This document shows positions 26,771 to 46,039 of a stretch of 64,000 nucleotides of DNA, piece by piece. Below the pieces are notes generated by a model, which was not told where the DNA came from, did not search any database, and saw only the letters and a list, made by a program, of their open reading frames with translations. The stretch comes from Gammaproteobacteria bacterium (lineage in GTDB: Bacteria; Pseudomonadota; Gammaproteobacteria; SURF-13), in assembly GCA_038924245.1 (NCBI GenBank), contig JBCKVB010000001.1:9798-73797 (forward strand), read 5' to 3'. The position numbers and the translations under genes were made by a program. Numbering within the stretch: the first letter of the stretch is position 1; every line of letters begins with the position of its first letter.

Positions 26771-26792
26771 AAGGCGTCAGCAAAGAATTCTG

Positions 26793-27077: not shown

Positions 27078-27122
27078 GGTATCTCCTTCAGATATATTTT
27101 ATGGCATGTATACGCCGGTGCA

Positions 27123-27907: not shown

Positions 27908-27977
27908 ACAGTGTTAAAAAGGCGAGCGCTATTTTGTAGCGCTGGCCCGAATCAAACATGAGAATTTCTTGGAATGC

Positions 27978-29215: not shown

Positions 29216-30841
29216 CTAACCCGTGCGCGCCTCCAGGCGCTGCTTGTCCGGTTCCACGCCCTGGCTGCGCAGATAATCGTCGTAGCCGCCGCTGAAGTTG
29301 GCCACGCCTTGCGGCGTCAACTCGATGATGCGCGTGGCGAGCGACGAGACGAATTCGCGGTCGTGACTGACGAAAATCAAGGTGCCGGGATAGTTTTCCA
29401 GCGCGCCGTTGAGCGACTCGATGGATTCCATATCCAGGTGATTGGTGGGTTCGTCCATGACCAGCACATTGGGCTGTTGCAACATCAGTTTGCCGAACAG
29501 CATGCGCCCCTGTTCACCGCCGGAGATGATGTTGACTGACTTATTGATCTCATCCTGGGAAAACAGCAGCCGCCCCAGCACCGCGCGTACCGCCTGCTCA
29601 TCGTCGCGCTCTTTCTTCCACTGGCTCATCCAGTTGAATAAATTCATGCCGATGGCAAAGTCGGCCGCATGATCTTGCGCGAAGTAGCCTATTTTCACAT
29701 TCTCGGACCACTTGATCATGCCGCTGTCCGGCTTCAATTCACCCACCAGGGTACGCAGCAGGGTGGTCTTGCCGATGCCGTTGGGGCCGATCACGGCGAC
29801 GCGCTCACCCGCCTCAATCATCAGATTGAGATTGCGGAACAACGGCGTTTCGCCATAGCCCTTGACAAGACGGCGCACTTCCAGCGCCAGACGATAGAGT
29901 TTTTTCTCCTGCTCGAAGCGGATAAACGGATTGGCGCGGCTCGACAGCTTCACTTCCGCCAGCTCAATCTTGTCTATCTGCCGCGCGCGCGAAGTGGCCT
30001 GCTTGGCCTTGGAGGCATTGGCGGAGAAGCGGCTGACGAAGGTCTGTAATTCGGCGATCTGCGCCTTTTTCTTGGCGTTGCCGGACAATAGCTGTTCGCG
30101 CACCAGCGTGGCGGCGGTCATGTATTCGTCGTAGTTACCCGGATAGACGCGCAGCTCGGCGTAATCCAGGTCGGCCATGTGCGTGCACACGCGATTCAGA
30201 AAGTGGCGGTCGTGAGAAATAATCACCATCGTGCTGTTGCGCGCGTTAAGCGTATCCTCCAGCCAGCGGATGGAGTTGATGTCGAGGTTATTGGTGGGCT
30301 CGTCCAGCAGCAGGATGTCCGGGTCGGCGAACAAGGCCTGCGCCAGCAGCACGCGCAGCTTCCAGCCCGGCGCCACCGCGCTCATCGGGCCATTATGCTG
30401 TTCCAGCGGGATACCGGCGCCCATCAGCAACTCACCGGCACGCGCCTCGGCGGTGTAGCCATCCAGTTCGGCGAACTCGTGTTCCAGATCAGCCGCCTGC
30501 ATGCCGTCTTCCTCGCTCATTTCCGCGAGCGAGTAAATGCGGTCGCGCTCCTGCTTTACGCGCCACAGTCCGGTATGGCCCATGATGACCGTATCCAGCA
30601 CCGTGTAATCCTCGAACGCGAACTGATCCTGGTGCAGCTTGCCGAGACGCTCGTTGGCGTCAACGGAGACGTTGCCCGACGTCGGCTCCAGGTCGCCGCC
30701 GAGGATTTTCATCAGCGTGGACTTGCCGCAACCGTTTGCGCCGATCAAACCGTAGCGGTTCCCGTTGCCGAATTTGACCGAGATATTCTCGAACAGGGGC
30801 TTGGCCCCGAACTGCATAGTAATATTGGCTGTAGAAATCAA
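29216..30841 (-). CDS. ybiT: ABC-F family ATPase (YbiT-like, translation-associated)
   Basis: 541 aa; two ABC cassettes (GANGCGKST...LSGGE... / GPNGIGKTT...); no TM domain; N-terminus near-identical in pattern to E. coli YbiT. Confidence 0.8.
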
Positions 30842-31011
30842 GAGATTGTTCCAGAAAATGAAGTTACCAAGGAGAAGGTGAGGATGAGGGGGTGCCCTGC
30901 AATGGGTGTATTATCTCATAATTCATCCCCACACCGCGAACCGCCGGAGAACATCGGGCATGACCGCATGAGCAGAGTATTGAACGTAAGCTGAAACAGT
31001 GACTAAAAGTG

Positions 31012-32307
31012 CTACGGGAGCCTTCTAAGGCGAAACAGACCCTGGGTGTCACTATCGCTGGTGAAATACAGCGCGCCATCCGGCCCGATGGCCACACCCA
31101 CGGGCCGCGCCCAGCGTTCACCGTCCTGCATCTGAAAACCGCTGACCAGATCATCCACCCGCTGCACCCGACCCTCCTTAAACCGCACGGCGACGATCTT
31201 CGGCGGACGCCGGGTGGACGCCGCACCGAAGAAATCGCCGCCGGGCTGAGTCCCCCATGAACCGCGCAGCGCCACGATGGCAGCGCCCTCAAGTGCCTTG
31301 TCCATCGCGCCTTGCGGCACAAAGATCACGCCCATCGGCGAATTGCGCGCCGGGAAGGTCGCCACCGGCGCCACCACAGCCTCAAGCGGCCGCGGCGGAG
31401 AGCGCTTGATGCAATCATCGCGCCGGATGCGCTGACCATCGTATTGAAACCAGGGCATGCCATGAAATGACCCGGCATCAATCCGGCTGAAATACTCCGG
31501 CGGCTGCTCATAGCCCAGATGATCGGGGCCGTTATTGCTCGCGTACAACACGCCGGTGTCCGGCTGCCAGGCAAACCCCACGGCGTTGCGCAGCCCCGAG
31601 GCATAAGTTTCCCAACGCGGCTCCGCGCCCCCCCTCGCTTCGCTCACCCCATCCCCCTCACGCAACACCAGGATGCCGCCCCGGCGATCTTCAAATGGAT
31701 ACGGCTTACCCAGATATTGATCGCTGCAGTTACCGCTGATGCCGAGGCTCGCGTACACCCGGCCATCCGGCCCAACACCCACAGTGCGGCTATTGTGCCC
31801 GCCACCGCCGGGCAAGGCCGCCAGCAGTTTCACCGCAGCGGGCGCAAGCTTTCTCTGACCGGGCTTATAAGGCGCGCGGTACACGCCATCGGTGCGGGCA
31901 ATGAGGATTTCGTTGCTCCGGAACGCGACACTGTGCGGATAACCGCCCAGCGCGACCAAGACCTCCGGCGCGGTATAAGGCGGCGGCAGGCGGTACACGT
32001 TGCCGGACTTGGAGCCGATGAACAGATCGCCGTTGCCGGAAAAGGTTAACAAGCGCGGGCCATCCAACGCATCGGTCAAAAGCTCAAGCTGATAACCCTG
32101 CGGCACCCGCGCGCCCCGGCGCTCGCCGTCAAGGGTAACAGCCTGATCCTGATAGGTCAGCGCTTCAGTCGCCGCCTGCGCGAACGCCGCGGCACAACAG
32201 CAGAGAAATAAAAAGGCTGTTTTAAACACGAGGGGTTTCTCCGCTGGGGTTACCTTAATCAATAAACAGCATACTCCAACCCTTTTCATTTCAGTAGGTC
32301 GGATCAA
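31012..32307 (-). CDS. PQQ-dependent soluble sugar (glucose/sorbosone) dehydrogenase, beta-propeller; true start probably downstream of 32307
   Basis: 431-aa ORF; signal-peptide-like LFLCCCAAAFAQA; GSDH-family motifs ...GPDGRVYAS...LYASNNGPDH...GPDGALYFTSD. Confidence 0.75.
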   Translation of the reverse strand: MIRPTEMKRVGVCCLLIKVTPAEKPLVFKTAFLFLCCCAAAFAQAATEALTYQDQAVTLDGERRGARVPQGYQLELLTDALDGPRLLTFSGNGDLFIGSKSGNVYRLPPPYTAPEVLVALGGYPHSVAFRSNEILIARTDGVYRAPYKPGQRKLAPAAVKLLAALPGGGGHNSRTVGVGPDGRVYASLGISGNCSDQYLGKPYPFEDRRGGILVLREGDGVSEARGGAEPRWETYASGLRNAVGFAWQPDTGVLYASNNGPDHLGYEQPPEYFSRIDAGSFHGMPWFQYDGQRIRRDDCIKRSPPRPLEAVVAPVATFPARNSPMGVIFVPQGAMDKALEGAAIVALRGSWGTQPGGDFFGAASTRRPPKIVAVRFKEGRVQRVDDLVSGFQMQDGERWARPVGVAIGPDGALYFTSDSDTQGLFRLRRLP

Positions 32308-32411
32308 GCGTAGCGGATCCGACGTACAATGTCGGGACCGGCGCTATGCGCCTTGACCCGACCTACTTGCCAAGTGTTGTATCTCGGCACGGCAACAACA
32401 AAAGTGACTCT

Positions 32412-32969
32412 ATGGCCCTTAAAGCAACCATTTTCAAAGCCGAACTGCAAATCGCCGACATGGACCGTCACTACTACCACGACCATGCCCTCACCCTCGC
32501 CCGCCACTCATCGGAAACCGACGAGCGCATGATGGTGCGCTTATTGGCCTTTGCCCTGCACGCCCATGAGGCATTGGCATTTGGCAAAGGGCTGAGCGCC
32601 GACGACGAGCCCGATCTCTGGCAAAAGGATTTAACTGGCGTCATCGAAACCTGGATAGACGTAGGCCAACCCGACGAAAAACGCATCCGCAAAGCCTGCG
32701 GCCGCGCCAACCAGGTATTCATCTACACCTATGGCGGCCGCAGCGCCGACATCTGGTGGGAACAAAACAGCGGCAACCTCGAACGGATCAAAAATCTGAC
32801 CGTGATGAACCTGCCACTGGACACCAGCCGAGCCTTAGCGAAGCTGGCGCGGCTCAAGATGCAGTTACATTGCACCGTTCAGGATGGACAGATTTGGCTG
32901 GCCGATAACGATGACCGGGTGCAGATCGAACTGGCGACGGTAAAAACCCCATCGGCCTCTCTTCGCTGA
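32412..32969 (+). CDS. yaeQ: YaeQ family protein
   Basis: MALKATIFKAELQIADMDRHYYHDHALTLARHSSETDERMMVRLLAFAL... closely parallels E. coli YaeQ. Confidence 0.85.
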   Translation: MALKATIFKAELQIADMDRHYYHDHALTLARHSSETDERMMVRLLAFALHAHEALAFGKGLSADDEPDLWQKDLTGVIETWIDVGQPDEKRIRKACGRANQVFIYTYGGRSADIWWEQNSGNLERIKNLTVMNLPLDTSRALAKLARLKMQLHCTVQDGQIWLADNDDRVQIELATVKTPSASLR

Positions 32970-33078
32970 CGCGGCCTCAAGGCGGCGGATGATAAAATGC
33001 CAAAAGGTAAGACGCGCCCCTTTTTTATTTCTCGAACGCACCTTGTAAATATGTCAATTTGGACATATACTTAGACCA

Positions 33079-33411
33079 ATGAGTAGGCAGAGCAAGCCGT
33101 TGGTGTGGCTGCATGGCGAAGTCAAAACGCCACCTTTTTCCGCCGCCGCAAGAATTGAAGTGGGTGTTTTAATGCGACGCCTTCAAGAGGGTGCCAATAT
33201 ATCGCTGCCGCATGCAAGGCCAATACCCACCATCGGCCGCGGTTGTCATGAATTAAGAATCCCCGACGAAAATCGCACTTGGCGCATTGTGTACTACGTT
33301 GATACGGTAGCCATCGTCATTCTTGATGTGTTTGCCAAAACGACAAGCCAAACGCCTCAGACGGTAATTGACGTTTGCAAGGCGAGACTGAAACGCTATA
33401 AATCAATTTAG
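33079..33411 (+). CDS. higB: HigB-like type II toxin (Gp49/DUF891, RelE/ParE superfamily)
   Basis: 110 aa; KPLVWLHGEVKTPPFSAAARIEVGVLMRRLQEGANISLPHARPIPTIGRGCHELRIPDENRTWRIVYYV...VFAKTTSQTPQ... Confidence 0.75.
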   Translation: MSRQSKPLVWLHGEVKTPPFSAAARIEVGVLMRRLQEGANISLPHARPIPTIGRGCHELRIPDENRTWRIVYYVDTVAIVILDVFAKTTSQTPQTVIDVCKARLKRYKSI

Positions 33412-33427
33412 CATGAGGGTAAATGTC

Positions 33428-33757
33428 ATGAGTACTGACAAATTAAAGCGTCTCCGAGCCGCTGGCTGGAAAGTCGGCAGCGCAGAGGATTTTCTGCAAT
33501 TAAGTGATGAAGAGGCGCGGCTCGTCGCACTCAAGCTCGCGCTGATTAGCGCGGTAAAAAAATCGCGCATCAAACGTAAACTCTCGCAAACTGACCTTGC
33601 GCAACGCATGAAATCGAGTCAATCGCGCATTGCTAAAATTGAAGCGGGCGATTCTTCAGTTTCGCTAGATTTGATCGTACGTGCGCTCATCGCAAGCGGC
33701 GCAACAACGCGCGATATTCAGGCGGCGTTTACGTCAAAAGAACGGATGGCGGCCTAA
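33428..33757 (+). CDS. higA: HigA antitoxin, XRE-family HTH (alternative start at 33413)
   Basis: HTH KLSQTDLAQRMKSSQSRIAKIEAG; directly follows higB with a 2-17 nt spacing. Confidence 0.75.
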   Translation: MSTDKLKRLRAAGWKVGSAEDFLQLSDEEARLVALKLALISAVKKSRIKRKLSQTDLAQRMKSSQSRIAKIEAGDSSVSLDLIVRALIASGATTRDIQAAFTSKERMAA

Positions 33758-33928
33758 CTGTTGCAGCAGCAACGAATACCGCGTTTTGGCCACGCTCGAC
33801 GCGCACCAACACCATGAAGCTCGGCATCATGCGCGAAGCTCGACTTGCATTACGCGACCGTAAGACGTCTTATCAAGGCGGTGGAAGATAAAATGTCATA
33901 AGGCAAGATGTGCCCCCTTTCCCCCACG

Positions 33929-34366
33929 TCAGGTGCGGGCATGGTTTTTCAGCCAGTCCGCAGGGCTTAAGCAAGTGATGGCCGCAGGGGAACGTCCAAG
34001 CATTTCCTTGTCCAGGGTAATCAGGGGAGCGCTCATGCGGCGCGCGAGGGCGACATAAAGGGCATCAGCGCCGCGCAGGAACAAGTTTTGTGCAATGGCC
34101 TCGGCACTCGATGCCAAGTCGGAGTCAACAGGATAAAGCTCAATTTCCAGGAGGGCGCGCATTTCGCGGATGACCCGCGCGGCGTAATCAGGATTGCGCG
34201 TCGGGCGGGAAAATGCGCCTGCTATTTCGACGAACAATGTCGCCGGAGAACATAAAGTGACGGGGTGGGCAACGGTTGCTTCGAGAAAATCCGCGCTGAC
34301 CGAGTGCGCCGGCTCATTTTTCTTGAATGCCGCGACCAGAACGGATGCGTCAATAACAACGCGCAT
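33929..34366 (-). CDS. vapC: PIN-domain toxin VapC (start at MRVVIDASVL)
   Basis: PIN acidic residues (D at VIDASVL, E...D); paired with an upstream overlapping antitoxin. Confidence 0.75.
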   Translation of the reverse strand: MRVVIDASVLVAAFKKNEPAHSVSADFLEATVAHPVTLCSPATLFVEIAGAFSRPTRNPDYAARVIREMRALLEIELYPVDSDLASSAEAIAQNLFLRGADALYVALARRMSAPLITLDKEMLGRSPAAITCLSPADWLKNHART

Positions 34367-34625
34367 CGCGGTCTTCTTGAAGCTGCTGCAAGGCCGATTT
34401 TTTACTTTTCCAGGCAATTGCGTTTTGCTCGGCAAATTTTTCCAGCTTGGTGCGGAACGCCTTGGCGCGTGCCTGTTGCGGCTTGGCTGCAACCCCAGAC
34501 GGCGCGCCTTTTAGTTCCCGCTCCACCGCCGCAGTCACCAACTGCTTCAGCGTCTGACCCCGCATCAAGGCGGCAGCCTTCACCGCACGGAATAGTTCAT
34601 CGGGCATTTCAATAGTGGTTTTCAT
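34350..34625 (-). CDS. vapB: VapB-type antitoxin (start at MKTTIEMPDEL)
   Basis: Small DNA-binding N-terminus MKTTIEMPDELFRAVKAAALMRGQTLKQLV; 17-nt overlap with vapC. Confidence 0.65.
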   Translation of the reverse strand: MKTTIEMPDELFRAVKAAALMRGQTLKQLVTAAVERELKGAPSGVAAKPQQARAKAFRTKLEKFAEQNAIAWKSKKSALQQLQEDRDARCY

Positions 34626-34714
34626 GTCATCTTTCCAACAAACGTTCAGGGTGCACAAGCATCATACCCATAAATATGGGTATGTATCAAGCCGCCAGCC
34701 TGGCCCCTTTTTAC

Positions 34715-34981
34715 TTATCGGTAAATTTCGCGCCGGTTGCCGACCTGCACCACAAGGACGCGCAAAGCGCCATCCTGAATGTCGCAAATCACCCGGCAAT
34801 CGCCCACCCGGTAACGCCAGAAGCCGCCCAGCGGGCCAGTCAATGCTTTGCCTGTGCTGCGTGGGTTTTCCAGCCCGGCGATACGCTCGTCCATGAAATC
34901 AACGATGCGCCGTGCCGTCTGCTTGTCGAGCTTGCGTAGCTGCCCCTTGGCCGTCTCGGCGTAATCAATCGTCCAGGCCAA
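34715..34981 (-). CDS. RelE/ParE-family type II toxin
   Basis: 88 aa; ...GKALTGPLGGFWRYRVGDCRVICDIQDGALRVLVVQVGNRREIY matches the RelE/ParE C-terminal consensus. Confidence 0.8.
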   Translation of the reverse strand: MAWTIDYAETAKGQLRKLDKQTARRIVDFMDERIAGLENPRSTGKALTGPLGGFWRYRVGDCRVICDIQDGALRVLVVQVGNRREIYR

Positions 34982-35192
34982 GGGCTGCTCTCACGTCTGC
35001 GGCGGAATGCACCTGTTCTTGCCCCTTGCGGACACGCTCCAGCACATCAGCAGCAAGGTAGTAGTCCTCCATTTCCTCGATGCCCTGCTCGATGATTTCG
35101 CGCAGGTAGTACGCCTTTGTGCGCCCGGTATGGGATGCGAGGTAGGCTAGCCTTTGCTCGATTTCAGGAGCGAGGCGAATCGAAGTTGCCAT
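34965..35192 (-). CDS. RelB/ParD-like ribbon-helix-helix antitoxin
   Basis: 75 aa; MATSIRLAPEIEQRLAYLASHTGRTKAYYLREIIEQG; overlaps the start of the downstream toxin. Confidence 0.7.
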   Translation of the reverse strand: MATSIRLAPEIEQRLAYLASHTGRTKAYYLREIIEQGIEEMEDYYLAADVLERVRKGQEQVHSAADVRAALGLDD

Positions 35193-35347
35193 GTCAGAGC
35201 CTCCAATTAAATACGTGTATTCACTGTATCACAACACCGTTGTCTTGACCAGCCGGTGCTGCCTCGCGCCGGTTCTATGACCTCGCGCGCTGCACGCTGC
35301 TTTTAGAGCTTGCGGCGCGCCCGCGGCAAACCCACCACCCCGGCGAA

Positions 35348-35614
35348 GTGCTGCGGAAAGACGTGCTACCCGCCTTGGGCATCACCCAAACGGAATTTGC
35401 CAGCCGGCTGGGGGTATCGCGCCTCACCGTGTCGGAACTGCTGCACGAAAAGCGCGCCCTATCCCCGGATATGGCGGTACGCCTGGGCAAGCTGCTCAAC
35501 ACCACCCCGGAAAGCTGGCTGAGAATGCAATACGCCGTGGACTTGTGGGAGTTGACCCACGGCGAGAACGCCAAACGGTATCGAGGCATCAAGCCGCTGG
35601 AAATGGCGGCCTAA
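35348..35614 (+). CDS. HigA-family antitoxin homolog (HTH), orphan and apparently N-terminally truncated
   Basis: VLRKDVLPALGITQTEFASRLGVSRLTVSELLHEKRALSPDMAVRLGKLLNTTPESWLRMQ...; the conserved HPGE lies upstream in frame (…THHPGEV) but no ATG/GTG/TTG start is available there; no adjacent higB. Confidence 0.55.
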   Translation: MLRKDVLPALGITQTEFASRLGVSRLTVSELLHEKRALSPDMAVRLGKLLNTTPESWLRMQYAVDLWELTHGENAKRYRGIKPLEMAA

Positions 35615-35649
35615 GTTTCGCCAAGTGATAAAGGGTTGCGTCCACTTTG
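35506..35649. repeat. Direct repeat A (higA 3' end plus a 35-bp tail); identical copy at 37236-37379
   Basis: About 143 bp identical between the two loci. Confidence 0.8.
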
Positions 35650-35654
35650 TTTAG

Positions 35655-35800
35655 CTCCGCGGTCATCAACAAGCGCGCTGGCGGCATGGGTTTGATCTCC
35701 GGACGCAAGGCGTTCCAGAGGCCGCTGAAGGATGGCGCTGAGTTGCTGCACGCGATAACAGGATGTGTACCTGGAAAAGGTCGTGACCGTCGCGTGACGG
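35655..35800. repeat. Direct repeat B (encodes the C-terminal fragment ...[37 protein letters not shown]... of an unidentified gene); diverged copy at 36990-37135
   Basis: About 85-90% identity between copies; the copy-2 reading frame is intact to a TGA while copy 1 has a 1-bp insertion. Confidence 0.7.
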
Positions 35801-35949
35801 GCGTAGCGCGTGCAGCGTGGATACTTCCAAGGCGGAACACTTTTTCTTAGAATAGCCGTCCAGATGTGCTAAACTTAGCACGTAAGCGGCTGACATATTG
35901 CCGAATGCAGGTCAGATCGTAAACCGATCTCTTAGGAAGGAGCCAAGCT

Positions 35950-36513
35950 ATGCCACAGGTCGCCAGAGCCGAAGCCCTCATGCCCTCACAAATCAAGTTC
36001 CATTTCGATCCAGAAAAAGCCGTAGAGGTGATTCTCTACATCGCTAATCGTGTTGCCGATACGGGCTTTCACCGCATTTCCAAAATTCTTTATTTCTCCG
36101 ACCGGGATCATTTGGCGAAGTACGGGCGCTTCATCTGTGGCGACAGTTATGTCGCCATGAAGCATGGCCCAGTCCCGAGCGGTACTTACGATATCCTCAA
36201 GCACGTACGCGGTGATGGTTTACCGTGCCTTGTTCCCCATGCCGCTGAATCCTTCAGCGTCGAAAACGGCAACAGAGTTATTCCACTCAAAGACGCTGAC
36301 CTCGGCGTGCTGAGCGACTCTGAAAGAGAATGCCTGGATGCGGCGATTACCAAGTATGGAAAAATGCCGTTCAAGAAACTCACCGAACTGAGTCACGACA
36401 GGGCGTGGAATTCGGCCGATGAGAACGAGTTCATCGAGGTAGAACAGATCGTCGCCACGCTACCAGACACCAAGCATTTGCTGGAACATCTCGCCAATCC
36501 CTACCCCGATTAA
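35950..36513 (+). CDS. Panacea (DUF4065) domain protein, PanA/SocA-like candidate antitoxin
   Basis: 187 aa; ISKILYFSDRDHLAKYGRFICGDSYVAMKHGPVPSGTYDILK fits the Panacea-domain core (KLQKLLYFA...G.PL....F.A...GPV....Y); strong GGAAGGAG RBS. Confidence 0.65.
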   Translation: MPQVARAEALMPSQIKFHFDPEKAVEVILYIANRVADTGFHRISKILYFSDRDHLAKYGRFICGDSYVAMKHGPVPSGTYDILKHVRGDGLPCLVPHAAESFSVENGNRVIPLKDADLGVLSDSERECLDAAITKYGKMPFKKLTELSHDRAWNSADENEFIEVEQIVATLPDTKHLLEHLANPYPD

Positions 36514-36519
36514 GCCGAC

Positions 36520-36978
36520 GTGCAAGTCTGGGATCGTCTTCCACCAGAGGAGCAGCGCAAATACATCAGCGCACGTCTGACACCCGGCCGGGTGCTACTG
36601 CTTTACTGCGACTTCACAATACCGCCGAAGGACAAGTTTCTCGTCCTTGCCTGCATCGAACCGGAACCGTTGTTTCTGGTCATTAACTCCCAACTATCCG
36701 AGTTCATACGAAAACGGGAATGGTTGCTTCAATGCCAAGTCAGCATCAAACATGAAGACCATCCATTTCTTAAACACCATTCCTACATAGACTGTACGAG
36801 CGCCCACAAAGTCACATCGCGTGACATCTATGAACAACTCGAAAAGGACATCAAAAAGGTAAAAGACGAAATCAGCAAAGACACCCGCGATCAGATTCGC
36901 GCCGCCGTTAAATTCTCGAAGACACTGCCTGCCAGACACAAATTAGACATCCTGGCTGCGTTAGGTCAAAACACCTGA
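36520..36978 (+). CDS. Hypothetical protein, candidate toxin partner of the Panacea-domain gene (GTG start 6 nt after the upstream stop)
   Basis: 152 aa with no recognisable family; translationally coupled to the Panacea gene; the two-gene cassette is flanked by repeats B/B'. Confidence 0.45.
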
Positions 36979-36989
36979 TGCACAGGCGG

Positions 36990-37135
36990 TGCGCACCGCG
37001 GTCATCAACAAGCGCGCGGACGGTATGGGGTTGATCTCAGGACGCAAGGCGTTCCAGGGGCCGCTGAAGGGTGGCGTTGAACTGCTGCACGCGATACAGG
37101 ATGTGTATTTTGAACAAGCGGTCACCATCGCGTGA
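36990..37135. repeat. Repeat B' (diverged copy of 35655-35800)
   Basis: See repeat B. Confidence 0.7.
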
Positions 37136-37204
37136 TGCATGCAGGGCCGTAGCGCCGAATGGTTAACTTCCACATTCGGCGCAATGCCATTCGGTTATTG
37201 CGCC

Positions 37205-37345
37205 TACCGCGCTGCTGCACGAAAAGCGCGCCCTACCCCGGAAAGCTGGCTGAGAATGCAATACGCCGTGGACTTGTGGGAGTTGACCCACGGCGAGAAC
37301 GCCAAACGGTATCGAGGCATCAAGCCGCTGGAAATGGCGGCCTAA
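37205..37345 (+). pseudogene. higA remnant: 3' portion of a HigA-family antitoxin gene with an internal deletion
   Basis: ...LLHEKRALP|ESWLRMQYAVDLWELTHGENAKRYRGIKPLEMAA is identical to the 3' end of 35348-35614 but lacks about 45 bp between short ccc(c)gg repeats. Confidence 0.65.
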
Positions 37346-37379
37346 GTTTCGCCAAGTGATAAAGGGTTGCGTCCACTTT
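37236..37379. repeat. Repeat A' (identical copy of 35506-35649)
   Basis: See repeat A. Confidence 0.8.
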
Positions 37380-37656
37380 GGTCGAGGCGGTGGCATTCCA
37401 AAGAAAGGGTTGCGTCACCTTTGTGTGTGGGTAGAATCGAGCAGCAAAAGCCGGATATTTTTTTGGCAGGTCTGCTTGACAGATATAAAGTATAGGCCTG
37501 ACCGCGATGATCGGCCTGAGAACAAAATTAAACTACTAAAATATCAGTATTGATTAACATTGTTCCAATTATGAGTGTTGCAAATTGCACTTTATAGTGG
37601 ACCCCGAATTTGAGACAGTAGTTTAAGCTGTAGTCCGATGAAGAAGGAGTCGGGCG

Positions 37657-37950
37657 ATGAGCGGAACGAAGCGAAAAGTATTTGGGGCGGAATTCAAGGC
37701 CAAGGTGGGCCTGGAAGCGATCCATGGGGTCAAGACACTCAACCAGATCGCGCAGGAGCACGGCGTGCATCCGGTGCAGGTAGGCCAGTGGAAGAAAGAG
37801 ATATTGGAACGCGCTGGCAGCCTGTTTGAAGGCAAGCGCGGCCCCAAGGCGGTGAACGAGCACAGCGAGCCAGAGCGGCTCTACGGCGAGATCGGCCGGT
37901 TGAAGATGGAGTTGGACTGGCTCAAAAAAAAGTCCGGGTTGGGCCAGTAG
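37657..37950 (+). CDS. IS3-family transposase OrfA (HTH)
   Basis: 97 aa; KVFGAEFKAKVGLEAIHGVKTLNQIAQEHGVHPVQVGQWKKE...leucine zipper LKMELDWLKK. Confidence 0.85.
   Translation: MSGTKRKVFGAEFKAKVGLEAIHGVKTLNQIAQEHGVHPVQVGQWKKEILERAGSLFEGKRGPKAVNEHSEPERLYGEIGRLKMELDWLKKKSGLGQ
37924..37932 (+). promoter_or_regulatory. Programmed -1 ribosomal frameshift slippery site A AAA AAA AG
   Basis: Run of 8 A's followed by G at the orfA/orfB overlap, as in IS3/IS150-type elements. Confidence 0.7.
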
Positions 37951-37985
37951 CAAGCAGGCGCGCATGGATCGAGCCTGAAGCGGTA

Positions 37986-38867
37986 ATGCCGATGGTACGG
38001 CAGTGTGAGCTGGCGGGTGTCTCCCGCGCCACGGTGTATGCGCAGCGTGTAACCCAGCCGATAATCGAACAGGACTTGGAGTTGCTGCGCCTGATCGACG
38101 AACAGTACACCCGCCGCCCGTTTTACGGCAGCCGGAAAATGGTCTCGTTCCTGAGGGTGCAAGGCCTCCGGGTCAACCGCAAGCGTGTGCAGCGGCTGAT
38201 GCGCATCCTGGGCTTGGCGGGCACGGCGCCGGGGCCGGACACCAGCCGCCCGCACCCGCGGCACAAGGTCTATCCGTACCTGTTGCGCGGCGTGGCGGTG
38301 ACGAGACCGAACCAGGTGTGGAGCACCGACATCACCTACATCCGGCTGACGCATGGCTTCGTCTACTTGGTGGCGGTGATCGACTGGTACAGCAGAAAAG
38401 TATTGAGCTGGAGAATCAGCAACACGCTGGACACGGCGTTCTGTGTAGACTGTTTGGAAGAAGCATTACAGCGGTATGGCAATCCTGAGATATTCAATAC
38501 CGATCAGGGCTGCCAGTTCACCAGTGAGAGCTTCACTGGTGTGCTCAAAGCCAACGGCATCGCCATCAGCATGGACGGACGCGGGCGGGCACTGGACAAC
38601 ATCTTTGTGGAACGGCTATGGCGCAGCGTGAAATACGAAGACGTATATTTGAAAGGCTACGCCAACCCGATGGAATTGATGATCGGACTGACGGAATACT
38701 TTGTGTTTTACAATGGCGAAAGACCGCACCAGTCGTTAGGCAACCGTACACCGGCAGAGGTATACGCGACGGCCAGCGGGGGCGGCGCAAGGATCGTAGA
38801 CAAGTTCAGCAAGAATGGGGCAGCGCCATGCGGCTGCGAGCAGGACGGACAGACCAGCTTAAACTAG
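37986..38867 (+). CDS. IS3-family transposase OrfB (DDE/rve integrase core); expressed as an OrfAB fusion from about 37930
   Basis: 293 aa; ...WSTDITYIRL...VIDWYSRKVLSW...NTDQGCQFTS...FVERLWRSVKYE DDE motif. Confidence 0.85.
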   Translation: MPMVRQCELAGVSRATVYAQRVTQPIIEQDLELLRLIDEQYTRRPFYGSRKMVSFLRVQGLRVNRKRVQRLMRILGLAGTAPGPDTSRPHPRHKVYPYLLRGVAVTRPNQVWSTDITYIRLTHGFVYLVAVIDWYSRKVLSWRISNTLDTAFCVDCLEEALQRYGNPEIFNTDQGCQFTSESFTGVLKANGIAISMDGRGRALDNIFVERLWRSVKYEDVYLKGYANPMELMIGLTEYFVFYNGERPHQSLGNRTPAEVYATASGGGARIVDKFSKNGAAPCGCEQDGQTSLN

Positions 38868-39205
38868 ACTGATTTCTGTCTTGACGGATGGGTCCACTGT
38901 AAGCGGTCCTGCGTCAACTGAATATCTCTTTGCTGGTTCTTCTTGCTGCCACCGCCTAGAAGAATGACCAATGCATTACCCACCTGACCGAAATAAATCC
39001 GGTAGCCCGGGCCAAAATCAATTTTGTATTCGGAGATTCCCTTCGCCAAGTGTTTGGCATTTTAGAAGTTGCCCTGCTCCATCCGATAGAGTCCTGTAGC
39101 CACCTTCGCTGCGGCCACTGGATCAAGCCGACTAAACCAGCGACTGAACGGTGACTTACCGTCCGGCTCCAAGTATTCGCTAACCTGTCGTAGCGTTATG
39201 TCCAT
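38864..39205 (-). pseudogene. HigB-like 'addiction module killer' toxin gene with an in-frame TAA at 39062-39064 and its 3' end replaced by the IS3 terminus
   Basis: MDITLRQVSEYLEPDGKSPFSRWFSRLDPVAAAKVATGLYRMEQGNF*NAKHLAKGISEYKIDFGPGYRIYFGQVGNALVILLGGGSKKNQQRDI fits the family consensus (…GNFGD.K.VG.GV.E.RID.GPGYR.YF…ILLCGGDK..Q..DI). Confidence 0.7.
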
Positions 39206-39347
39206 ATGGTAACTTATAAGTTACTTTTGTCAATACGCGGAAGGGGGATTGATGAATCAGTAGCGTAGCGATACGCGCCATAGACAATCATCGCATCGCC
39301 GAGTGATAACATGCTTTCCGCGCGGCAAGTTGAGGGCCGCCCCATGC

Positions 39348-39752
39348 TCATGCCTGCCTCACCCCTTCCAGAAAATCCTTTAACGATAGCATCCGGACTC
39401 CCCGATAGACGTCCAACCGCAGCATCGCCTGATCCCCTGTTACGATCACGTCCGCCTTTCCGGTAACAGCGCACTCGAGAATCCGGTTGTCTGGCTCATC
39501 GTGCAGTATCTTGAGCCGGCGACGGGGTGTTACGACCTCTGCGAGTTCTGACAGGTATACCGCTGTACGCGCCAGTTGCTCCAGATTGCGGTCAAATTTG
39601 CGCGCCAGGACATTGAGTACTTCGTGGATGATATCCTTGGAAATAGTCAGATGCACATCGCCTTCGATCACCCTGAGGATGGCCGCCTCCGCCCGGCCAC
39701 CCGGGATGGCAAATGCTGAAATGAAAATATTGGTGTCGAAGACCGCCCTCAC
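39348..39752 (-). CDS. PIN-domain toxin (VapC-like)
   Basis: 134 aa; MRAVFDTNIFISAF...ECAVTGKADVIVTGD. Confidence 0.75.
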   Translation of the reverse strand: MRAVFDTNIFISAFAIPGGRAEAAILRVIEGDVHLTISKDIIHEVLNVLARKFDRNLEQLARTAVYLSELAEVVTPRRRLKILHDEPDNRILECAVTGKADVIVTGDQAMLRLDVYRGVRMLSLKDFLEGVRQA

Positions 39753-39997
39753 TTGCGGAGGTAACGCTCCAGGTCCTTCTCTGTAAGAAGGCCCTTTTCC
39801 TTGGCCTTGCGACTCCAGTAGCCCTGAATGCCGCGCAGGTCGGCTTTAAGCCGTGACGCGCGTGCAGCCCGCAGCGCGTCCTGCACCACGGCGCTCAGGG
39901 TTTTGCCCTCAGCGCGAGCAATGGCCTCTGCTTCTTTGGCAAGCTCGGGCGAAAGCGAGATAGTCTTTTTGACGGCGGTTCCCATAGACGGCCTCAC
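39749..39997 (-). CDS. Ribbon-helix-helix (CopG/Arc-type) antitoxin for the PIN toxin (alternative start at 39985)
   Basis: 82 aa; KKTISLSPELAKEAEAIARAEGKTLSAVVQDALR; ATGA start/stop overlap with the PIN toxin gene. Confidence 0.65.
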   Translation of the reverse strand: MRPSMGTAVKKTISLSPELAKEAEAIARAEGKTLSAVVQDALRAARASRLKADLRGIQGYWSRKAKEKGLLTEKDLERYLRK

Positions 39998-40056
39998 ATC
40001 AGATAGTATGAATAAATCATACCAGCATGGGTTGGCCTGTCAAGCAGACACCAAGA

Positions 40057-40149
40057 TGGCGGAGAGGGTGGGATTCGAACCCACGTGGCGGGATGAACCG
40101 CCCATCCGATTTCGAGTCGGCGCCGTTATGACCGCTTCGGTACCTCTCC
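40057..40149 (-). tRNA. tRNA-Ser (anticodon CGA)
   Basis: Reverse complement GGAGAGGTACCGAAGCGGTCATAACGGCGCCGACTCGAAATCGGATGGGCGGTTCATCCCGCCACGTGGGTTCGAATCCCACCCTCTCCGCCA; long variable arm. Confidence 0.85.
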
Positions 40150-40218
40150 GGGGAAATTTTGACAACGCCGTGGCGGTGCGCAACGGCTATTTTAACTTAA
40201 ATAAGGCGACCCGTCCTT

Positions 40219-40896
40219 TCAGCCATTAAGCAATTGGCGCACCAGGGGGATGGTCAGTTTGCGCTGCGCGGCGAGGGAGGCGATATCGAGGCGTTGCAGG
40301 AATTCAAGCAGCCCTGACAAATCGCGTGTTGAGCGCGCAAGCAGAAAACGTCCCACCTCATCTGGCAGTTCAATACCCCGATTGCGCGCGCGCTGTTGTA
40401 GGGCGGCCAGCTTGTCCGCATCCTGCAAGGGGTGCAGTTGCAGCACCAGCCCCCATGAGAGCCGGGAGGCCAAATCGGGCAACATGACCGGCAATACCGC
40501 TGGCGCCGTAGCGGCGGCCATGATCAGGCGCGCGCCGCTGTCGCGCACGCGGTTGTACAAATGGAACAGCGCCCTCTCCCACTCCGGATGACCGGCGATG
40601 GCTTGCACGTCATCCAGACAAATCAGCGCAAGCTGCTCCAGTCCATCAAAAACCGTAGTGGAAAGTTCCCTTATCTGAGCCAGAGGAAGATAGGCTGACT
40701 GTAACTCCTGTTGTGCCGCCGCCTGGCAAACGGCTTGCAGCAAATGAGTTTTGCCCGATGCGGGCGCTCCCCATAAATAAATCAGCGGCTGCGCGGCGTC
40801 TTGCAGCGCCGCCATGACCTCGTGATTGCCGCCTGGGATAAAATTGGCAAGGCTCGCGCTGTCGTTAAGCGTGACTTGCAGTGGCAACTGAGTCAT
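40219..40896 (-). CDS. hda: DnaA regulatory inactivator Hda
   Basis: 225 aa; AAA+ Walker A GAPASGKTHLL and DnaA domain III-like features. Confidence 0.85.
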   Translation of the reverse strand: MTQLPLQVTLNDSASLANFIPGGNHEVMAALQDAAQPLIYLWGAPASGKTHLLQAVCQAAAQQELQSAYLPLAQIRELSTTVFDGLEQLALICLDDVQAIAGHPEWERALFHLYNRVRDSGARLIMAAATAPAVLPVMLPDLASRLSWGLVLQLHPLQDADKLAALQQRARNRGIELPDEVGRFLLARSTRDLSGLLEFLQRLDIASLAAQRKLTIPLVRQLLNG

Positions 40897-40911
40897 CGGC
40901 CGTCACCCCGG

Positions 40912-41970
40912 TCACTCACGCGGCGTGCGGTCGTAGAGGTGGCTGTCGAGATAGTGTTGGCGCAGGTGGCGCAGCAGCACCACGATGACCGCCGCGGCCG
41001 GCAAGGCGAGCAGTATGCCGAGGAAGCCGAACAACTGGCCGCCCGCCATCACCGCGAAAATCACCGCCACGGGATGCAGGCCGACGCGTTTGCCGATCAG
41101 ATGCGGCGTGAGCCAGAAACTTTCGATCAACTGGCCGGCGCCGAATACCGCCAGTACCGGCAGCAAATACAGCAGGTCCTGAAACTGCACCAGTGCGGCG
41201 ATACTTGCCAACACGATGCCGATGGCGAACCCAAGATACGGCACAAAGCTCAGCAGGCCCGCGATCAGGCCGATGAGCAGCGCCAGGTCCAATCCCATGA
41301 TCCATAAGCCCGCGGTGTAAAGAACGCAGAGCGCCAGCATGACCAGTAATTGTCCACGCAGAAATGCGCCCAGCACGTCATCGCTTTCCCGCGCGAGCTT
41401 CGTCACCGTCGGCTCGACGTGGCGCGGCAGCATCTCATGGATATGCTTGAGCAGCACATTCCAGTCGCGCAGCAGGTAAAACGTGACCAGGGGAATCAGT
41501 ATCAGATTCACCAGCCAGGATAAGAATGCGAGCCCGGAGTCCGTGACCTCGCCCATCACGCTCGCGGCCAGGCCGCCCGCCTGTTGCCAGTGCGCGCGCA
41601 GGATTTCCTGCAAAGCGCTGATATCAAGCCCGATTTCTTCGATGCCCAGGCGCGCGCGCAGCCAGGGCAGCGCCGTCTCCTGCAGCCAGGCGAAATAGCC
41701 GGGCAGTTTACCGATGAAGGTGGCGATTTGCCGTTCCAGCAGCGGGACCAGGATGACCAGTGTCACCAGCACGATCAGCAGGATCAGGCCGAACACCAGG
41801 GTGGCGGAGAGCGAGCGCGACAGTTTGCGCGCCTCCAGACGGTTCACCAGCGGGTTGCCGAGGTAGGCGAACAGAGCGGCGGCGAGAAACGGGGTGAGTA
41901 CCGGGGCAAGCAGATACATGAGCAGCGCGCCGCCCGCGAGCGCGGCCAATGACAGCCACGCCTTAGTCAC
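40912..41970 (-). CDS. AI-2E family transporter (PerM/YhhT-like)
   Basis: 352 aa; 8 TM segments; conserved C-terminal FGFLGILLALP. Confidence 0.8.
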   Translation of the reverse strand: MTKAWLSLAALAGGALLMYLLAPVLTPFLAAALFAYLGNPLVNRLEARKLSRSLSATLVFGLILLIVLVTLVILVPLLERQIATFIGKLPGYFAWLQETALPWLRARLGIEEIGLDISALQEILRAHWQQAGGLAASVMGEVTDSGLAFLSWLVNLILIPLVTFYLLRDWNVLLKHIHEMLPRHVEPTVTKLARESDDVLGAFLRGQLLVMLALCVLYTAGLWIMGLDLALLIGLIAGLLSFVPYLGFAIGIVLASIAALVQFQDLLYLLPVLAVFGAGQLIESFWLTPHLIGKRVGLHPVAVIFAVMAGGQLFGFLGILLALPAAAVIVVLLRHLRQHYLDSHLYDRTPRE

Positions 41971-42532
41971 GCCGCTCCTGTGTGTTCACTTGCTGTACGC
42001 GCGTAATCCAGCTCCAGACGTAATCCAGCCAGCTCCAGAGGGTGGATACGAGTACCAGGTAAACCAAGCCGACGATGCTCCACTCCGGCAGCGGCAAGAT
42101 GCTGAGTTTCAGCATCACGACCAACACTAGGCTGATCTGTAAAACGGTATTGACCTTGCTGATCCGGGTCGGCGCCAGGTCAAAGCGCCGGACGGTGAAA
42201 TGGTAAACCAGCGCACCGCCGATAATCATCAGGTCGCGCCCCAGCACCACCGCCACCAGCCAGCCCGGCAGCAGATCGAGCCAGGCCAGCGTGACATAAG
42301 CGGAGACTAGCAATATTTTATCGGCCAGCGGGTCGAGGATGGATCCCAGCCGGCTCTTCCAGCCGTGACGTTTGGCCAGATAGCCATCCAGGGCGTCACT
42401 TAGCCCCGCCACGCCAAACAGCAGCAACGCGGTAAAATAGCGCCCATCCAGCAACGCCATGATGAAAAACGGCACCAGCGCGATGCGCACCAGGCTGATA
42501 ATATTGGGAAGGTTGTTTTTGTCCATGAACAC
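41963..42532 (-). CDS. pgsA: CDP-alcohol phosphatidyltransferase, probable CDP-diacylglycerol--glycerol-3-phosphate 3-phosphatidyltransferase
   Basis: 189 aa; DALDGYLAKRHGWKSRLGSILDPLADK matches the D-G-x2-A-R...G-x3-D-x3-D motif. Confidence 0.7.
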   Translation of the reverse strand: MFMDKNNLPNIISLVRIALVPFFIMALLDGRYFTALLLFGVAGLSDALDGYLAKRHGWKSRLGSILDPLADKILLVSAYVTLAWLDLLPGWLVAVVLGRDLMIIGGALVYHFTVRRFDLAPTRISKVNTVLQISLVLVVMLKLSILPLPEWSIVGLVYLVLVSTLWSWLDYVWSWITRVQQVNTQERRD

Positions 42533-42764
42533 TCCCGTATTTTAGCAGGGTTTGGCCGCCTACTGCGCGCGGTTTGAAGGACGTTTTATTAACCAATACC
42601 CCGCACTCTTGGAGCGGCCCCGGCAATGGGGTTCCCAAAGGGGAGTGGCGCCAGCTCGCCCCTTTGGTCGCCCGCGCGGATTCATTCCGCGCGGTGCGAA
42701 ATCTAATAGCATTTGCAGTCTGTGCGCGGGCCCGATAACATAGCCTTCTTATCTAGCGCATACC

Positions 42765-45243: not shown

Positions 45244-45268
45244 TCAAAATGAATCCCTTAAATCGTAC

Positions 45269-45885: not shown

Positions 45886-46039
45886 CATAATTAGCAACCC
45901 AATAAGTAATGAAAATCCTTATTCATTGTAAGGAGATGGTTGAGGTTTGTCAACAGATCGTTAGCACTGCCGTGGTACGTCAATAACCGTCTTGTGCCTG
46001 CGCAAGCCCCAGGCAGGGGCTGGAGCTTACCCCGCTGAG

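Follow-up and report, generated by a model that had tools for sequence, protein, structure and literature searches.

A probable hotspot beside tRNA-Ser(CGA) at which small toxin–antitoxin pairs insert, duplicate and decay

Five intact-looking type II toxin–antitoxin (TA) pairs lie between yaeQ and tRNA-Ser(CGA) in the analysed 64-kb stretch of DNA from an uncultured gammaproteobacterium, here called the window: a Gp49/HTH higBA, a vapBC, a ParE/RelB pair, PanA/PanT and a PIN_3/RHH pair. Alongside them are two further higA loci, one a start-less orphan and the other a remnant, as well as a pseudogene of a RelE/ParE-family toxin and one IS3 element, which is intact (Table 1). An earlier note on this DNA had counted eight TA-related loci together with the IS3 and the tRNA, and ORF, Pfam, NCBIfam and tRNA searches recovered all of them in place. 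The clustering is real, since only one further TA pair (45269-45897) was noted in the rest of the window. The composition is atypical: GC is lower in the islet, at 0.549 against 0.607, and GC3 per module ranges over 0.51-0.79 against 0.66-0.82 in core genes. A scan of all six frames of 32970-40056 detected no tyrosine or serine recombinase domain, in agreement with the lack of an integrase reported in the note. The window contains no second copy of the tRNA 3' end, such as the note had suggested looking for at the yaeQ-proximal boundary.

Table 1. Features of the variable slot and its flanks (window coordinates).
Feature	Position	Strand	Evidence and remarks
GSDH-like (soluble glucose/sorbosone dehydrogenase family) gene	31012..32307	-	Pfam GSDH
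Hairpin, 75 nt, 16-bp arms	32293..32367	.	inverted repeat I6; RNAfold -42 kcal/mol
yaeQ	32412..32969	+	Pfam YaeQ, 1e-79
D3a, left copy of 48-nt imperfect direct repeat flanking higBA1	32977..33024	+	83% identical to D3b
higBA1	33079..33757	+	HigB1 33079-33411, PF05973 Gp49, E 8e-12; HigA1 33413-33757, HTH_3
D3b, right copy of 48-nt repeat	33873..33920	+	L093 homology stops exactly here
vapBC1	33929..34625	-	VapC1 33929-34366, PIN 7e-16; VapB1 34350-34625, RHH-like
ParE/RelE-family toxin + RelB-like antitoxin	34715..35192	-	34715-34981, PF05016 4e-14; 34965-35192, NF048017 2e-29
Orphan higA2 (HigA family)	35327..35614 (ORF 35348-35614)	+	TIGR02607, 2e-29, positions 3-80 of 81; match from 35327
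H copy 1 (higA2 3' 111 nt + 35-nt tail)	35504..35649	+	repeat D1; 100% identical to 37235-37380
X1, class I fructose-bisphosphate aldolase (fbaB type) 3' end	35654..35797	+	tblastn with L026 aldolase, 2e-11
PanAT cassette	35841..36978	+	panA 35950-36513, SocA_Panacea 8e-22; panT 36520-36978, 152 aa
X2, second aldolase 3' end	36980..37135	+	tblastn 5e-17, 73% identity; 85% nt identity to X1
higA2' remnant	37196..37380 (37139-37345 in the count of loci)	+	repeat D1, alignment
IS3-family element, apparently intact	37592..38902	+	Pfam HTH_Tnp_1 + rve; inverted repeats TTAYAGTGGACC
RelE/ParE-family toxin pseudogene	38903..39205	-	TIGR02683, 5e-26
PIN_3 toxin + RHH antitoxin	39348..39997	-	PIN_3 39348-39752, 3e-20; RHH 39749-39997
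tRNA-Ser(CGA)	40057-40149	-	ARAGORN, Rfam; 3' end faces islet, right boundary of variability

An operator-like palindrome, ATATGTC-N6-GACATAT (33049-33068), accompanies higBA1, whose proteins are 98% identical in L093, a relative with a ~96% identical genome. The repeat copy D3a is absent in L093, and the 9-nt microhomology seen there (GACGCGGCC / GACGCGCCC) fits a loss by slippage deletion. The two genes of vapBC1, a module not found in the L093 slot, share 17 nt; the sequence CATACCCATA-AA-TATGGGTATG at 34663-34684 is palindromic, and the matches of VapB1 are ParD/RHH-like and all weak.

The central block is built of repeated pieces. Orphan higA2 has no higB partner, no in-frame ATG, GTG or TTG ahead of 35348 and no canonical start upstream of the conserved HPGE motif. 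Its 3' end belongs to a 146-nt perfect repeat, the second copy of which forms the 3' part of higA2', resulting in a circularly permuted gene order; the 5' part of higA2' is degenerate and carries a 42-nt deletion between CCCCGGA repeats. The PanAT cassette contains an operator-like palindrome, GTGCTAA-AC-TTAGCAC (35866-35881), and the PanA/PanT pair is kept in eight other loci, one of which borders a conjugative element while another lies in a different TA cluster. Homology to L083, where the pair is found inside a TA cluster, covers 35841-36964. PanT belongs to a large family without a Pfam model, and its predicted structure has a MazF fold (pLDDT 96.9). X1 and X2, two diverged ends comprising the last ~50 codons of fbaB (the annotation of their homologues), bracket PanAT exactly where homology to the independent PanAT locus stops. 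X1 retains the terminal ~47 codons and the stop, with a 1-nt insertion that shifts the frame and weak homology on to ~35830; X2 begins 1 nt past the panT stop and keeps frame and stop intact over 51 codons, with weak homology on to ~37175. Of 141 core positions, 20 distinguish the two copies; half of these are third codon positions, and the codon changes comprise 8 synonymous and 9 nonsynonymous ones. This pattern indicates that both derive from once-functional alleles rather than from neutral decay of one duplicate. No aldolase 3' fragment was found beside an integrase in the viral contigs, phage records and plasmids searched, nor was an aldolase gene in intact form, an integrase or a circle in excised form seen.

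The IS3 element consists of orfA (37657-37950) and orfB (37986-38867) with an A-run slippery site near 37925-37934, and plasmid copies align over 37591-38901. It resembles its family in the orfA and orfB arrangement, A-rich slippery site, DDE 'rve' domain, terminal inverted repeats and 1.3-kb length, but differs in having no 3-4 bp target duplication (flanks ACT / GCG); this suggests that neighbouring DNA was deleted or that two copies of the IS recombined. The adjoining toxin pseudogene contains an in-frame TAA (39064-39062) and runs into the IS end, which takes the place of its last few codons. TIGR02683-type toxins are usually followed by a TIGR02684-type antitoxin, and this downstream partner is absent here. 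The anatomy of the junction would fit an IS-associated deletion of the antitoxin, under a presumed order of events. The PIN_3/RHH pair has a palindrome, GTATGA-N5-TCATAC, at 40006-40022. The distance from its RHH start codon to the tRNA is 59 nt, against the 50 bp given in the note. In L094 and L098, a partial T-arm-like repeat, GTGGGTTCGAAyCC, is present ~75 nt downstream of the tRNA.

Comparison with relatives, all of them MAGs, reveals how variable the locus is. Measured from the GSDH start to the tRNA 3' end, the slot ranges from 386 nt in L094-96 to 7,749 nt in the window, with L093 (3,207 nt) and L098 (3,647 nt) in between; the four lineages hold four unrelated contents, one of them nearly empty, and the sequence just past the tRNA in L101 is likewise unrelated. 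Homology to the window starts at 40057 in L094, 40053 in L098 and 40054 in L101, so that variability begins 0-4 nt from the tRNA 3' end in three relatives, bearing out the placement of the islet's end at tRNA-Ser. L093 is 94-97% identical to the window on both sides, with homology stopping at 33920 and restarting at 39446, and of the TA content it has only higBA1, RHH2 and a PIN2 remnant in common with it. The remaining 5.5 kb (vapBC1, parE/relB, higA2, PanAT, higA2', IS3 and the toxin pseudogene) are window-specific relative to L093 and known from a single metagenome-assembled contig. The PIN_3/RHH pair is represented by RHH2 and PIN2 fragments in L093 and by a 191-nt 3' PIN2 remnant, 80% identical, in L094-96. 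It is older than the other modules and the oldest resident of the slot, since remnants persist in two other lineages.

The left boundary lies further out than the earlier note assumed in treating yaeQ as a core flank. The GSDH-like gene is syntenic in L093, L094-96 and L098, and is the true conserved left flank of the slot. yaeQ is found in L093 but not in the L094-96 and L098 loci, all of which span the slot, and its nearest relatives in the species-representative collection, at 75-83%, are MAGs, several labelled Sulfuricella/Nitrosomonadales. At 78-79% Hda identity, relatives have the GSDH-like gene adjoining the tRNA slot and no yaeQ there; the variable segment therefore begins at ~32215-32289 and includes yaeQ. 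The 75-nt hairpin, unique in the window, sits where L098 homology stops (32288). These relatives show the region to be accessory, as the note had supposed, and hypervariable; the same content and order were not found in all relatives.

We consider the locus to be probably a tRNA-adjacent hotspot at which TA modules accrete and decay piecemeal. The module-by-module differences in content, even against the ~96% identical genome, together with the spread of GC3, the greater age of PIN_3/RHH and the lack of an integrase remnant or tRNA repeat, point to repeated small events. Self-contained type II TA operons and one IS3 would have filled, event by event in this lineage, the chromosomal interval that reaches from the GSDH-like gene to the tRNA-Ser(CGA) 3' end. 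By comparison with the relatives, the PIN_3/RHH pair beside the tRNA is the oldest and is decaying independently in two sister lineages; yaeQ and higBA1 were already in place when the window lineage parted from the ~96% relative. Dying modules are marked by the nonsense codon of the toxin pseudogene and by orphan antitoxins that stay behind, higA2 here and RHH2 in L093.

For the higA2-X1-PanAT-X2-higA2' block, entry by way of a cassette circle is a tentative reading; the permuted order and the perfect 146-nt repeat fit circular cassette capture. The donor might have carried small integrase-less cassettes in tandem with fbaB aldolase 3' ends (X) between them, a pattern that may be the trace of integrases targeting a gene 3' end and supplying a replacement end. 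Recombination between X copies would release a circle, PanAT-X-higA-tail-X, and a homologous crossover in the 146-nt higA 3' end would admit it to the slot, with two perfectly matching copies of the segment as the outcome. That X serves as a recombination site is conjecture.

The earlier note left the choice between a decayed integrative island and a TA graveyard. The decaying modules and lower GC uphold the graveyard; a single decayed island is not shown by the data, and we hold it unlikely. Such an island would have entered through a tyrosine integrase at the tRNA-Ser 3' end and later lost the integrase and distal att repeat, leaving TA cargo. It has in its favour the lower GC and the fact that, in three relatives, variable DNA sets in 0-4 nt from the end of the tRNA gene (3' side), and the GTGGGTTCGAAyCC motif of L094 and L098 could be an old att scar, but the six frames contain no integrase domain, the window has no tRNA-derived repeat, the ~96% genome has only both ends of the block in common, module GC3 is heterogeneous and PIN_3/RHH predates the remainder. 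An assembly chimera in part of the window-specific 5.5 kb, for instance a misjoin at the 146-nt repeat or the IS, is improbable. The source is a MAG contig, a single NCBI contig, of 79.7 kb, is the sole record with an identical PanT protein, and perfect repeats and IS elements are classic misjoin sites; however, an independent assembly confirms both flanks, junctions coincide with module boundaries, simple biology can explain the permuted order and PanAT occurs within another TA cluster too (L083).

An integron-type cassette array without integrase (CALIN), with D3 and X as attC sites and the TA pairs as cassettes, seems very improbable. TA cassettes are typical of chromosomal integrons, and short gene cassettes with repeated sequences between them are what the islet offers, but X is clearly coding sequence from the fbaB 3' end, its frame and stop codon preserved, and not an attC-type imperfect palindrome, the modules occupy both strands with their own promoters and operators, an Rfam scan of 30000-43000 matched the tRNA alone, and IntI is absent in the six-frame scan. 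A reading of the locus as part of the ordinary core genome, whose TA genes pass down vertically and keep their place, is scarcely credible: higBA1 and RHH2 are shared with the ~96% relative, but the unrelated slot contents, one nearly empty, already refute it.

Close counterparts of the islet are tRNA-adjacent genomic islets and hotspots enriched in type II TA modules (TA islands), where type II TA operons with no relation to one another likewise cluster with toxin pseudogenes and orphan antitoxins at a tRNA 3' end, content differs among close relatives and composition is atypical. It differs from these and from integron TA cassettes in having no integrase or att repeat and apparently no attC sites, and from the islands in being just 7 kb with hardly any content besides TA genes, an IS and yaeQ. 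The prophages e14 and phage 21 insert into icd and bring with them a substitute for its 3' end; as in the islet, the element ends are marked by a second, diverged copy of the last ~50 codons of a metabolic gene, but their own integrase and location at the target gene are lacking here. Streptococcal CIMEs accrete in tandem at the 3' ends of fda, rpsI and rpmG, span 1.2-13 kb, carry no recombination genes and are bounded by direct repeats from the housekeeping-gene 3' end (PMC7563491). The islet shares with them the small size, the lack of recombination genes, the tandem arrangement and a repeat that is also an aldolase gene 3' end; it departs from CIMEs in that the host is a proteobacterium and the aldolase of the class I fbaB type, that neither the intact target gene nor a partner ICE/IME is present, and that the array occupies a tRNA slot rather than the aldolase gene, and the att function of X is putative. 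PanT proteins of Pseudomonas moraviensis and Bifidobacterium ruminantium are MazF-like toxins of PanA/PanT systems (PMC8832971), to which the predicted toxin–antitoxin pair of the islet is likened by its antitoxin-first order, its Panacea domain and a partner that has no sequence domain match and is MazF-like by structure prediction.

From what is known of these families, every intact module would consist of two genes in an operon that has a promoter and an operator-like palindrome of its own, and in which the antitoxin binds the toxin and probably also the operator; the toxins are predicted RNases (two PIN, a Gp49/RelE-like and the MazF-fold PanT) or a ParE/RelE-fold protein. Comparison with relatives shows that modules are gained and lost quickly, and they may persist because their loss is penalised (addiction) or because they abort phage infection. 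The 7-kb stretch beside tRNA-Ser is a fast-changing slot in which small TA pairs are inserted, duplicated and left decaying, and the yaeQ–tRNA-Ser(CGA) islet illustrates a known phenomenon well rather than forming a new kind of system.

The interval between a GSDH-like gene (31012-32307, minus strand) and the 3' end of tRNA-Ser(CGA), here called the slot, is hypervariable, and its toxin-antitoxin (TA) modules have been gained and lost one by one, some remaining intact and others decaying. Relatives of this uncultured gammaproteobacterium were found by Hda search (identities of 96%, 81%, 79% and 78%, the next about 60%) and their loci aligned to the window. From the GSDH start to the tRNA 3' end, the window has 7,749 nt, occupied by the TA islet. 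The same interval measures 386 nt in the 78% relatives (L094-96), where 191 nt from the 3' part of the PIN_3 gene remain, and 3,207 nt in the 96% relative (L093), where it contains yaeQ, the higBA1 pair, another HigB/HigA pair, the RHH2 antitoxin and fragments of its PIN2 toxin. In L098 (79%) it is 3,647 nt long and carries six unrelated small ORFs, for which no Pfam matches were recorded and several of which have hydrophobic N-termini; yaeQ is missing from L098 and L094-96. In L101 (81%) unrelated DNA lies directly past the tRNA, and the contig stops there. Homology with the window begins at 40057 in L094, 40053 in L098 and 40054 in L101, that is, at the tRNA 3' end. Since slot contents and lengths differ among relatives, the region is accessory, as the earlier note had proposed, and the opposite view, that the same genes in the same order belong to the core genome, is refuted. 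An Hda-based metagenome scan found no close relative.

The left border needs revision. The earlier note had placed it at yaeQ, but that gene is part of the variable segment, and the flank that is conserved on this side is formed by the GSDH-like gene. A yaeQ scan of one genome per species returned 80 loci (best identity 83%) and was uninformative on the boundary, because none of them has hda, GSDH or TA genes near yaeQ; it hints that yaeQ is mobile. In a Sulfuricella MAG (L002, 3891-4979) an IS3-family element directly follows a yaeQ homologue of 77% identity, and the contig of the best match (L001, 83%) stops 277 nt past yaeQ. These neighbourhoods, and the fact that the slot of the 78-79% relatives lacks yaeQ, hint that the gene travels with mobile DNA. 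Between the GSDH-like gene and yaeQ lies a 75-nt hairpin (32293-32367; 16-bp arms, RNAfold -42 kcal/mol), present in the window as a single copy and beginning 5 nt past the end of L098 homology.

Every TA locus listed in the earlier note was recovered by ORF listing, Pfam and NCBIfam, and so was the IS3 element. The five intact pairs consist of small, adjacent, co-oriented genes spaced by 1 nt, -17, -17, 6 nt and -4 (ORF listing). Their toxins carry Gp49, PIN, ParE_toxin and PIN_3 domains or, in PanT, a predicted MazF fold; the antitoxins carry HTH_3, RelB-like, RHH and Panacea domains, VapB1 giving weak matches only, below the family cut-off. From what is known of these families, each intact pair would regulate its own expression and serve in addiction or abortive infection; orphan antitoxins may persist as harmless genes or as protection against addiction. 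A further TA pair lies at 45269-45897 (minus strand), between a DUF3108 gene and purA, and comprises an AbrB/PrlF-like antitoxin of 83 aa (45646-45897) and a PIN toxin of 126 aa (45269-45649). The window and L093 have it, and the 78% relatives L094-96 do not, their alignment showing a gap at 45238-46038; given this patchy presence, TA insertion at intergenic sites seems common in the lineage of the window.

Features of the TA islet and the adjoining tRNA gene (window positions)
Feature	Position	Strand	Basis or remark
HigB-like toxin, Gp49 family (higBA1)	33079-33411	+	ORF listing, Pfam, NCBIfam
HTH antitoxin (HTH_3) paired with the Gp49 toxin	33413-33757	+	
PIN toxin and RHH-like antitoxin (vapBC1)	33929-34625	-	
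ParE/RelE toxin and RelB-like antitoxin	34715-35192	-	
Orphan HigA-family antitoxin (higA2)	35348-35614	+	
PanA, Panacea-domain antitoxin	35950-36513	+	
PanT, 152-aa partner of PanA	36520-36978	+	
higA remnant (higA2')	37139-37345	+	
IS3 element	37592-38902	+	
RelE/ParE-family (TIGR02683) toxin pseudogene	in-frame TAA at 39064-39062	-	
PIN_3 toxin and RHH antitoxin (PIN2/RHH2)	39348-39997	-	
tRNA-Ser(CGA)	40057-40149	-	3' end toward islet, 59 nt from RHH start codon
Operator-like palindromes upstream of intact operons	33049-33068, 34663-34684, 35866-35881, 40006-40022		read from sequence

Comparison with L093 gives an order of events. The two genomes are 94-97% identical on both sides of the variable block; homology ends at 33920 and restarts at 39446. 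Common to both are yaeQ, higBA1 (proteins 98% identical), RHH2 and two PIN2 fragments, which match 39446-39495 and the sequence from 39690. At the position of the intact pair of the window, L093 thus retains the antitoxin as an orphan. Between the breakpoints L093 carries 1.15 kb with a different HigB(PF05015)/HigA pair and a truncated 102-aa ORF, and the window 5.5 kb with vapBC1, parE/relB, higA2, PanAT, higA2', the IS3 element and the toxin pseudogene. Because its remnants survive in three lineages, the PIN_3/RHH pair is the oldest module. The next arrivals were yaeQ and higBA1, and the middle of the block turned over after the two genomes of about 96% identity diverged. Elsewhere, about 2.4 kb of the window (26735-29175) is also found in L094 and L098, with a DinB-like IMS polymerase gene annotated nearby; L093 retains about 220 nt of it, which looks like a recent deletion in that genome. 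Three segments of about 75-130 nt (2409-2483, 8388-8518 and 25904-26032) match repeat copies in relatives, often at indel points (in L093 around 19506-19590, in L094 near its end); two of the three fold as strongly structured hairpins, and direct short-word BLAST gave no match among them.

A 48-nt imperfect direct repeat, D3, flanks higBA1 (32977-33024 and 33873-33920, 83% identical). Its right copy is the exact point at which synteny with L093 breaks, and the left copy is missing from L093, at a 9-nt microhomology. D3 was considered as a gene 3' end and rejected, being in L093 an out-of-family tail of the truncated 102-aa ORF. The motif TCRAGGCGGYGG, at junctions 32977, 33873 and 37382, was likewise set aside as a core site: two of these three copies belong to D3 repeats, which are homologous to each other, and one more exact copy, at 9032, seems to fall within a long ORF.

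Two other repeats, X1 (35654-35797) and X2 (36980-37135), each correspond to the last 50 or so codons and the stop of an fbaB-type class I fructose-bisphosphate aldolase (tblastn E 2e-11 and 5e-17, respectively), and homologues in plasmid records carry the fbaB annotation. The 144-nt repeats are 85% identical; a 1-nt frameshift disrupts X1, and X2 has stayed intact. Across the 47 codons present in both, 20 positions differ, and half of these are third positions; there are 8 synonymous and 9 nonsynonymous codon changes, so both copies descend from alleles that were once functional, not from the neutral decay of a single duplicate. The two copies bracket PanAT precisely: homology with another PanAT locus (L083) covers 35841-36964, and X2 begins one base past the panT stop. 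Outside this bracket the last 111 nt of higA2 and a 35-nt tail (35504-35649) recur at 37235-37380 with 100% identity, downstream of a degenerate higA with a 42-nt deletion. The resulting order, higA2-tail-X1-PanAT-X2-higA2'-tail, is circularly permuted.

Such an anatomy could arise from a donor array X-PanAT-X-higA-tail-X, in which small recombinase-less cassettes would stand in tandem with gene-3'-end copies between them. A circle, excised when one X copy recombines with another, would enter the slot by a Campbell-type homologous crossover with the resident higA2, through the 146-nt segment now duplicated; alternatively, a PanAT-X circle would insert at the X of an earlier higA-X-higA array. 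Both versions imply circular intermediates recombining at repeats. We place this cassette-circle model somewhere between doubtful and possible, as no external support was found for fbaB as an attachment site. A search with the X2 peptide (51 aa) returned hundreds of "aldolase" proteins of 50-90 aa that resembled widespread 3' fragments; they were rejected as an artefact, since both contexts checked were frameshift-split full-length genes in long-read assemblies. Viral-contig scans and tblastn against phages and plasmids found no aldolase fragment beside an integrase, and the lone "phage" match was a full-length fbaB.

By anatomy, the nearest documented analogue of the block is the CIME/accretion system of streptococci, whose integrase-less elements (1.2-13 kb) form tandem arrays at the 3' end of fda, rpsI or rpmG (PMC7563491). 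As in those elements, PanAT is flanked by direct repeats of a gene 3' end with no recombinase inside; unlike them, it is accompanied by no intact target aldolase gene in the 64-kb window and no ICE/IME genes in the islet. A wider reading, which we consider improbable, is that the higA2-X1-PanAT-X2-higA2' block is the footprint of an undescribed integrase-less TA "mini-cassette" traffic in Proteobacteria, in which the att site would mimic the fbaB 3' end and cassettes would accrete in tandem at fbaB via an integrase in trans, leave in circles of several cassettes and be taken up elsewhere through homologous recombination with TA genes already present there. Such traffic, if real, would provide a concrete mechanism for the tight-bordered movement of bare TA operons.

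The IS3 element has inverted repeats TTAYAGTGGACC, an A-run slippery site (-1 frameshift), open orfA and orfB and a DDE rve domain, and plasmid IS3 copies align over 37591-38901. No 3-4 bp target-site duplication is present, the flanks being ACT and GCG. At its right end the element has taken the place of the final few codons of the TIGR02683 toxin gene, which also has a nonsense codon. An antitoxin gene normally follows toxins of this type; here it is absent. The simplest reading is that an IS-associated deletion removed the antitoxin, the toxin having presumably been inactivated either earlier or as a consequence.

The earlier note had offered a choice between a decayed integrative island and a TA graveyard next to a tRNA gene. 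A single island integrated at the tRNA would agree with variability that abuts the tRNA 3' end (40053-40057), with variable presence among relatives and with atypical composition: the GC content of the islet is lower than that of the remaining window (0.549 against 0.607). The adjacency to the tRNA also holds, the distance being 59 nt to the RHH start codon and not 50 bp. The island reading is nevertheless weakened. A six-frame Pfam scan of 32970-40056 detected the IS3 transposase alone and no tyrosine or serine recombinase, bearing out the integrase absence noted earlier. A directly repeated copy of the tRNA 3' end, which the earlier note had proposed to look for at the yaeQ-proximal boundary, was not found; that end has no repeat within the islet, its sole other match being the paralogous tRNA-Ser(GGA). 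Composition is mixed among modules, with GC3 from 0.51 (higBA1) to 0.79 (higA2 and the IS) against 0.66-0.82 in flanking core genes, the PIN_3/RHH pair predates the other modules, and the relative of about 96% identity has only the two ends of the block in common. In L094 (reverse complement 5650-5745) and L098 (reverse complement 9760-9865) a common terminator hairpin 3' of tRNA-Ser(CGA) is followed, about 75 nt past the tRNA, by a partial T-arm-like repeat, GGTGGGTTCGAACCC...GGGTTCGTAATCC, a possible old att scar of an event mediated by an integrase; neither the window nor L093 has this segment, and in both RHH2 adjoins the tRNA instead.

An integron-like cassette array or CALIN is unlikely: X is a coding 3' end, and the modules lie on both strands, each with its own operators. 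D3 is an unstructured 48-mer, and a general Rfam scan of 30000-43000 returned the tRNA alone. An assembly chimera within the 5.5 kb specific to the window is conceivable but improbable, and the flanks are independently confirmed by another assembly. The graveyard is what stands: in a hotspot beside a tRNA gene, TA modules have piled up and some have decayed, an ordinary phenomenon unusually well resolved, and nothing in it amounts to a new kind of system.

This applies to PanAT as well. PanA matches Panacea (PF13274) with E 8e-22 and 78.7 bits against a cut-off of 25.7, and PanT has no match in Pfam, NCBIfam, PADLOC or PDB sequences. A PanA of 187-189 aa with a 152-aa partner and the same 6-nt gap occurs in eight other contexts, including a conjugative-element edge (GCA_041695325.1), restriction-modification neighbours and another TA cluster. 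At the first of these (L081; JBGFRC010000027.1, 9431-10459) PanT is 68% identical and the neighbours are TrwC relaxase, TraG/TrwB and TrbL, with DNA methyltransferase genes adjacent; the same genome has a nearly empty tRNA-Ser slot. A PanT profile search (E<=1e-3) gave 1,209 clusters at 50% identity, the best 150 of which are mostly about 150 aa long. The AlphaFold2 model from a 67-sequence alignment reached pLDDT 96.9 (42 with 15 sequences), and its top 31 Foldseek matches in the PDB are all MazF (target-normalised TM 0.53-0.72, probability 0.82-1.0). The model is a MazF-like SH3-like barrel with additional N- and C-terminal helices; K39 and S88 are invariant, and G23, F32, K37, N56, Q73, L84 and C92 are also conserved. 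From its fold, PanT is a predicted sequence-specific endoribonuclease. MazF-like PanT toxins without domain matches have already been reported, with translation blocked, and the antitoxin-first gene order is the commoner one (PMC8832971). PanAT of the window is a known kind of system, its likeness to validated PanT lying at the level of predicted fold.

The locus also flags a large PanT family of predicted MazF fold (1,200 or more clusters at 50% identity), for which Pfam, NCBIfam and PADLOC have no model. To our knowledge, the spread and accumulation of bare TA operons without a recombinase is poorly documented outside integrons. The slot presents a dated series in one place, from near-empty through 3 kb to 7.7 kb, with several steps caught in progress: a cassette bracketed by gene-3'-end mimics, a recombination scar of 146 perfectly matching nucleotides, a toxin that is already knocked out and whose antitoxin was apparently lost beside an IS, and orphan antitoxins that remain.
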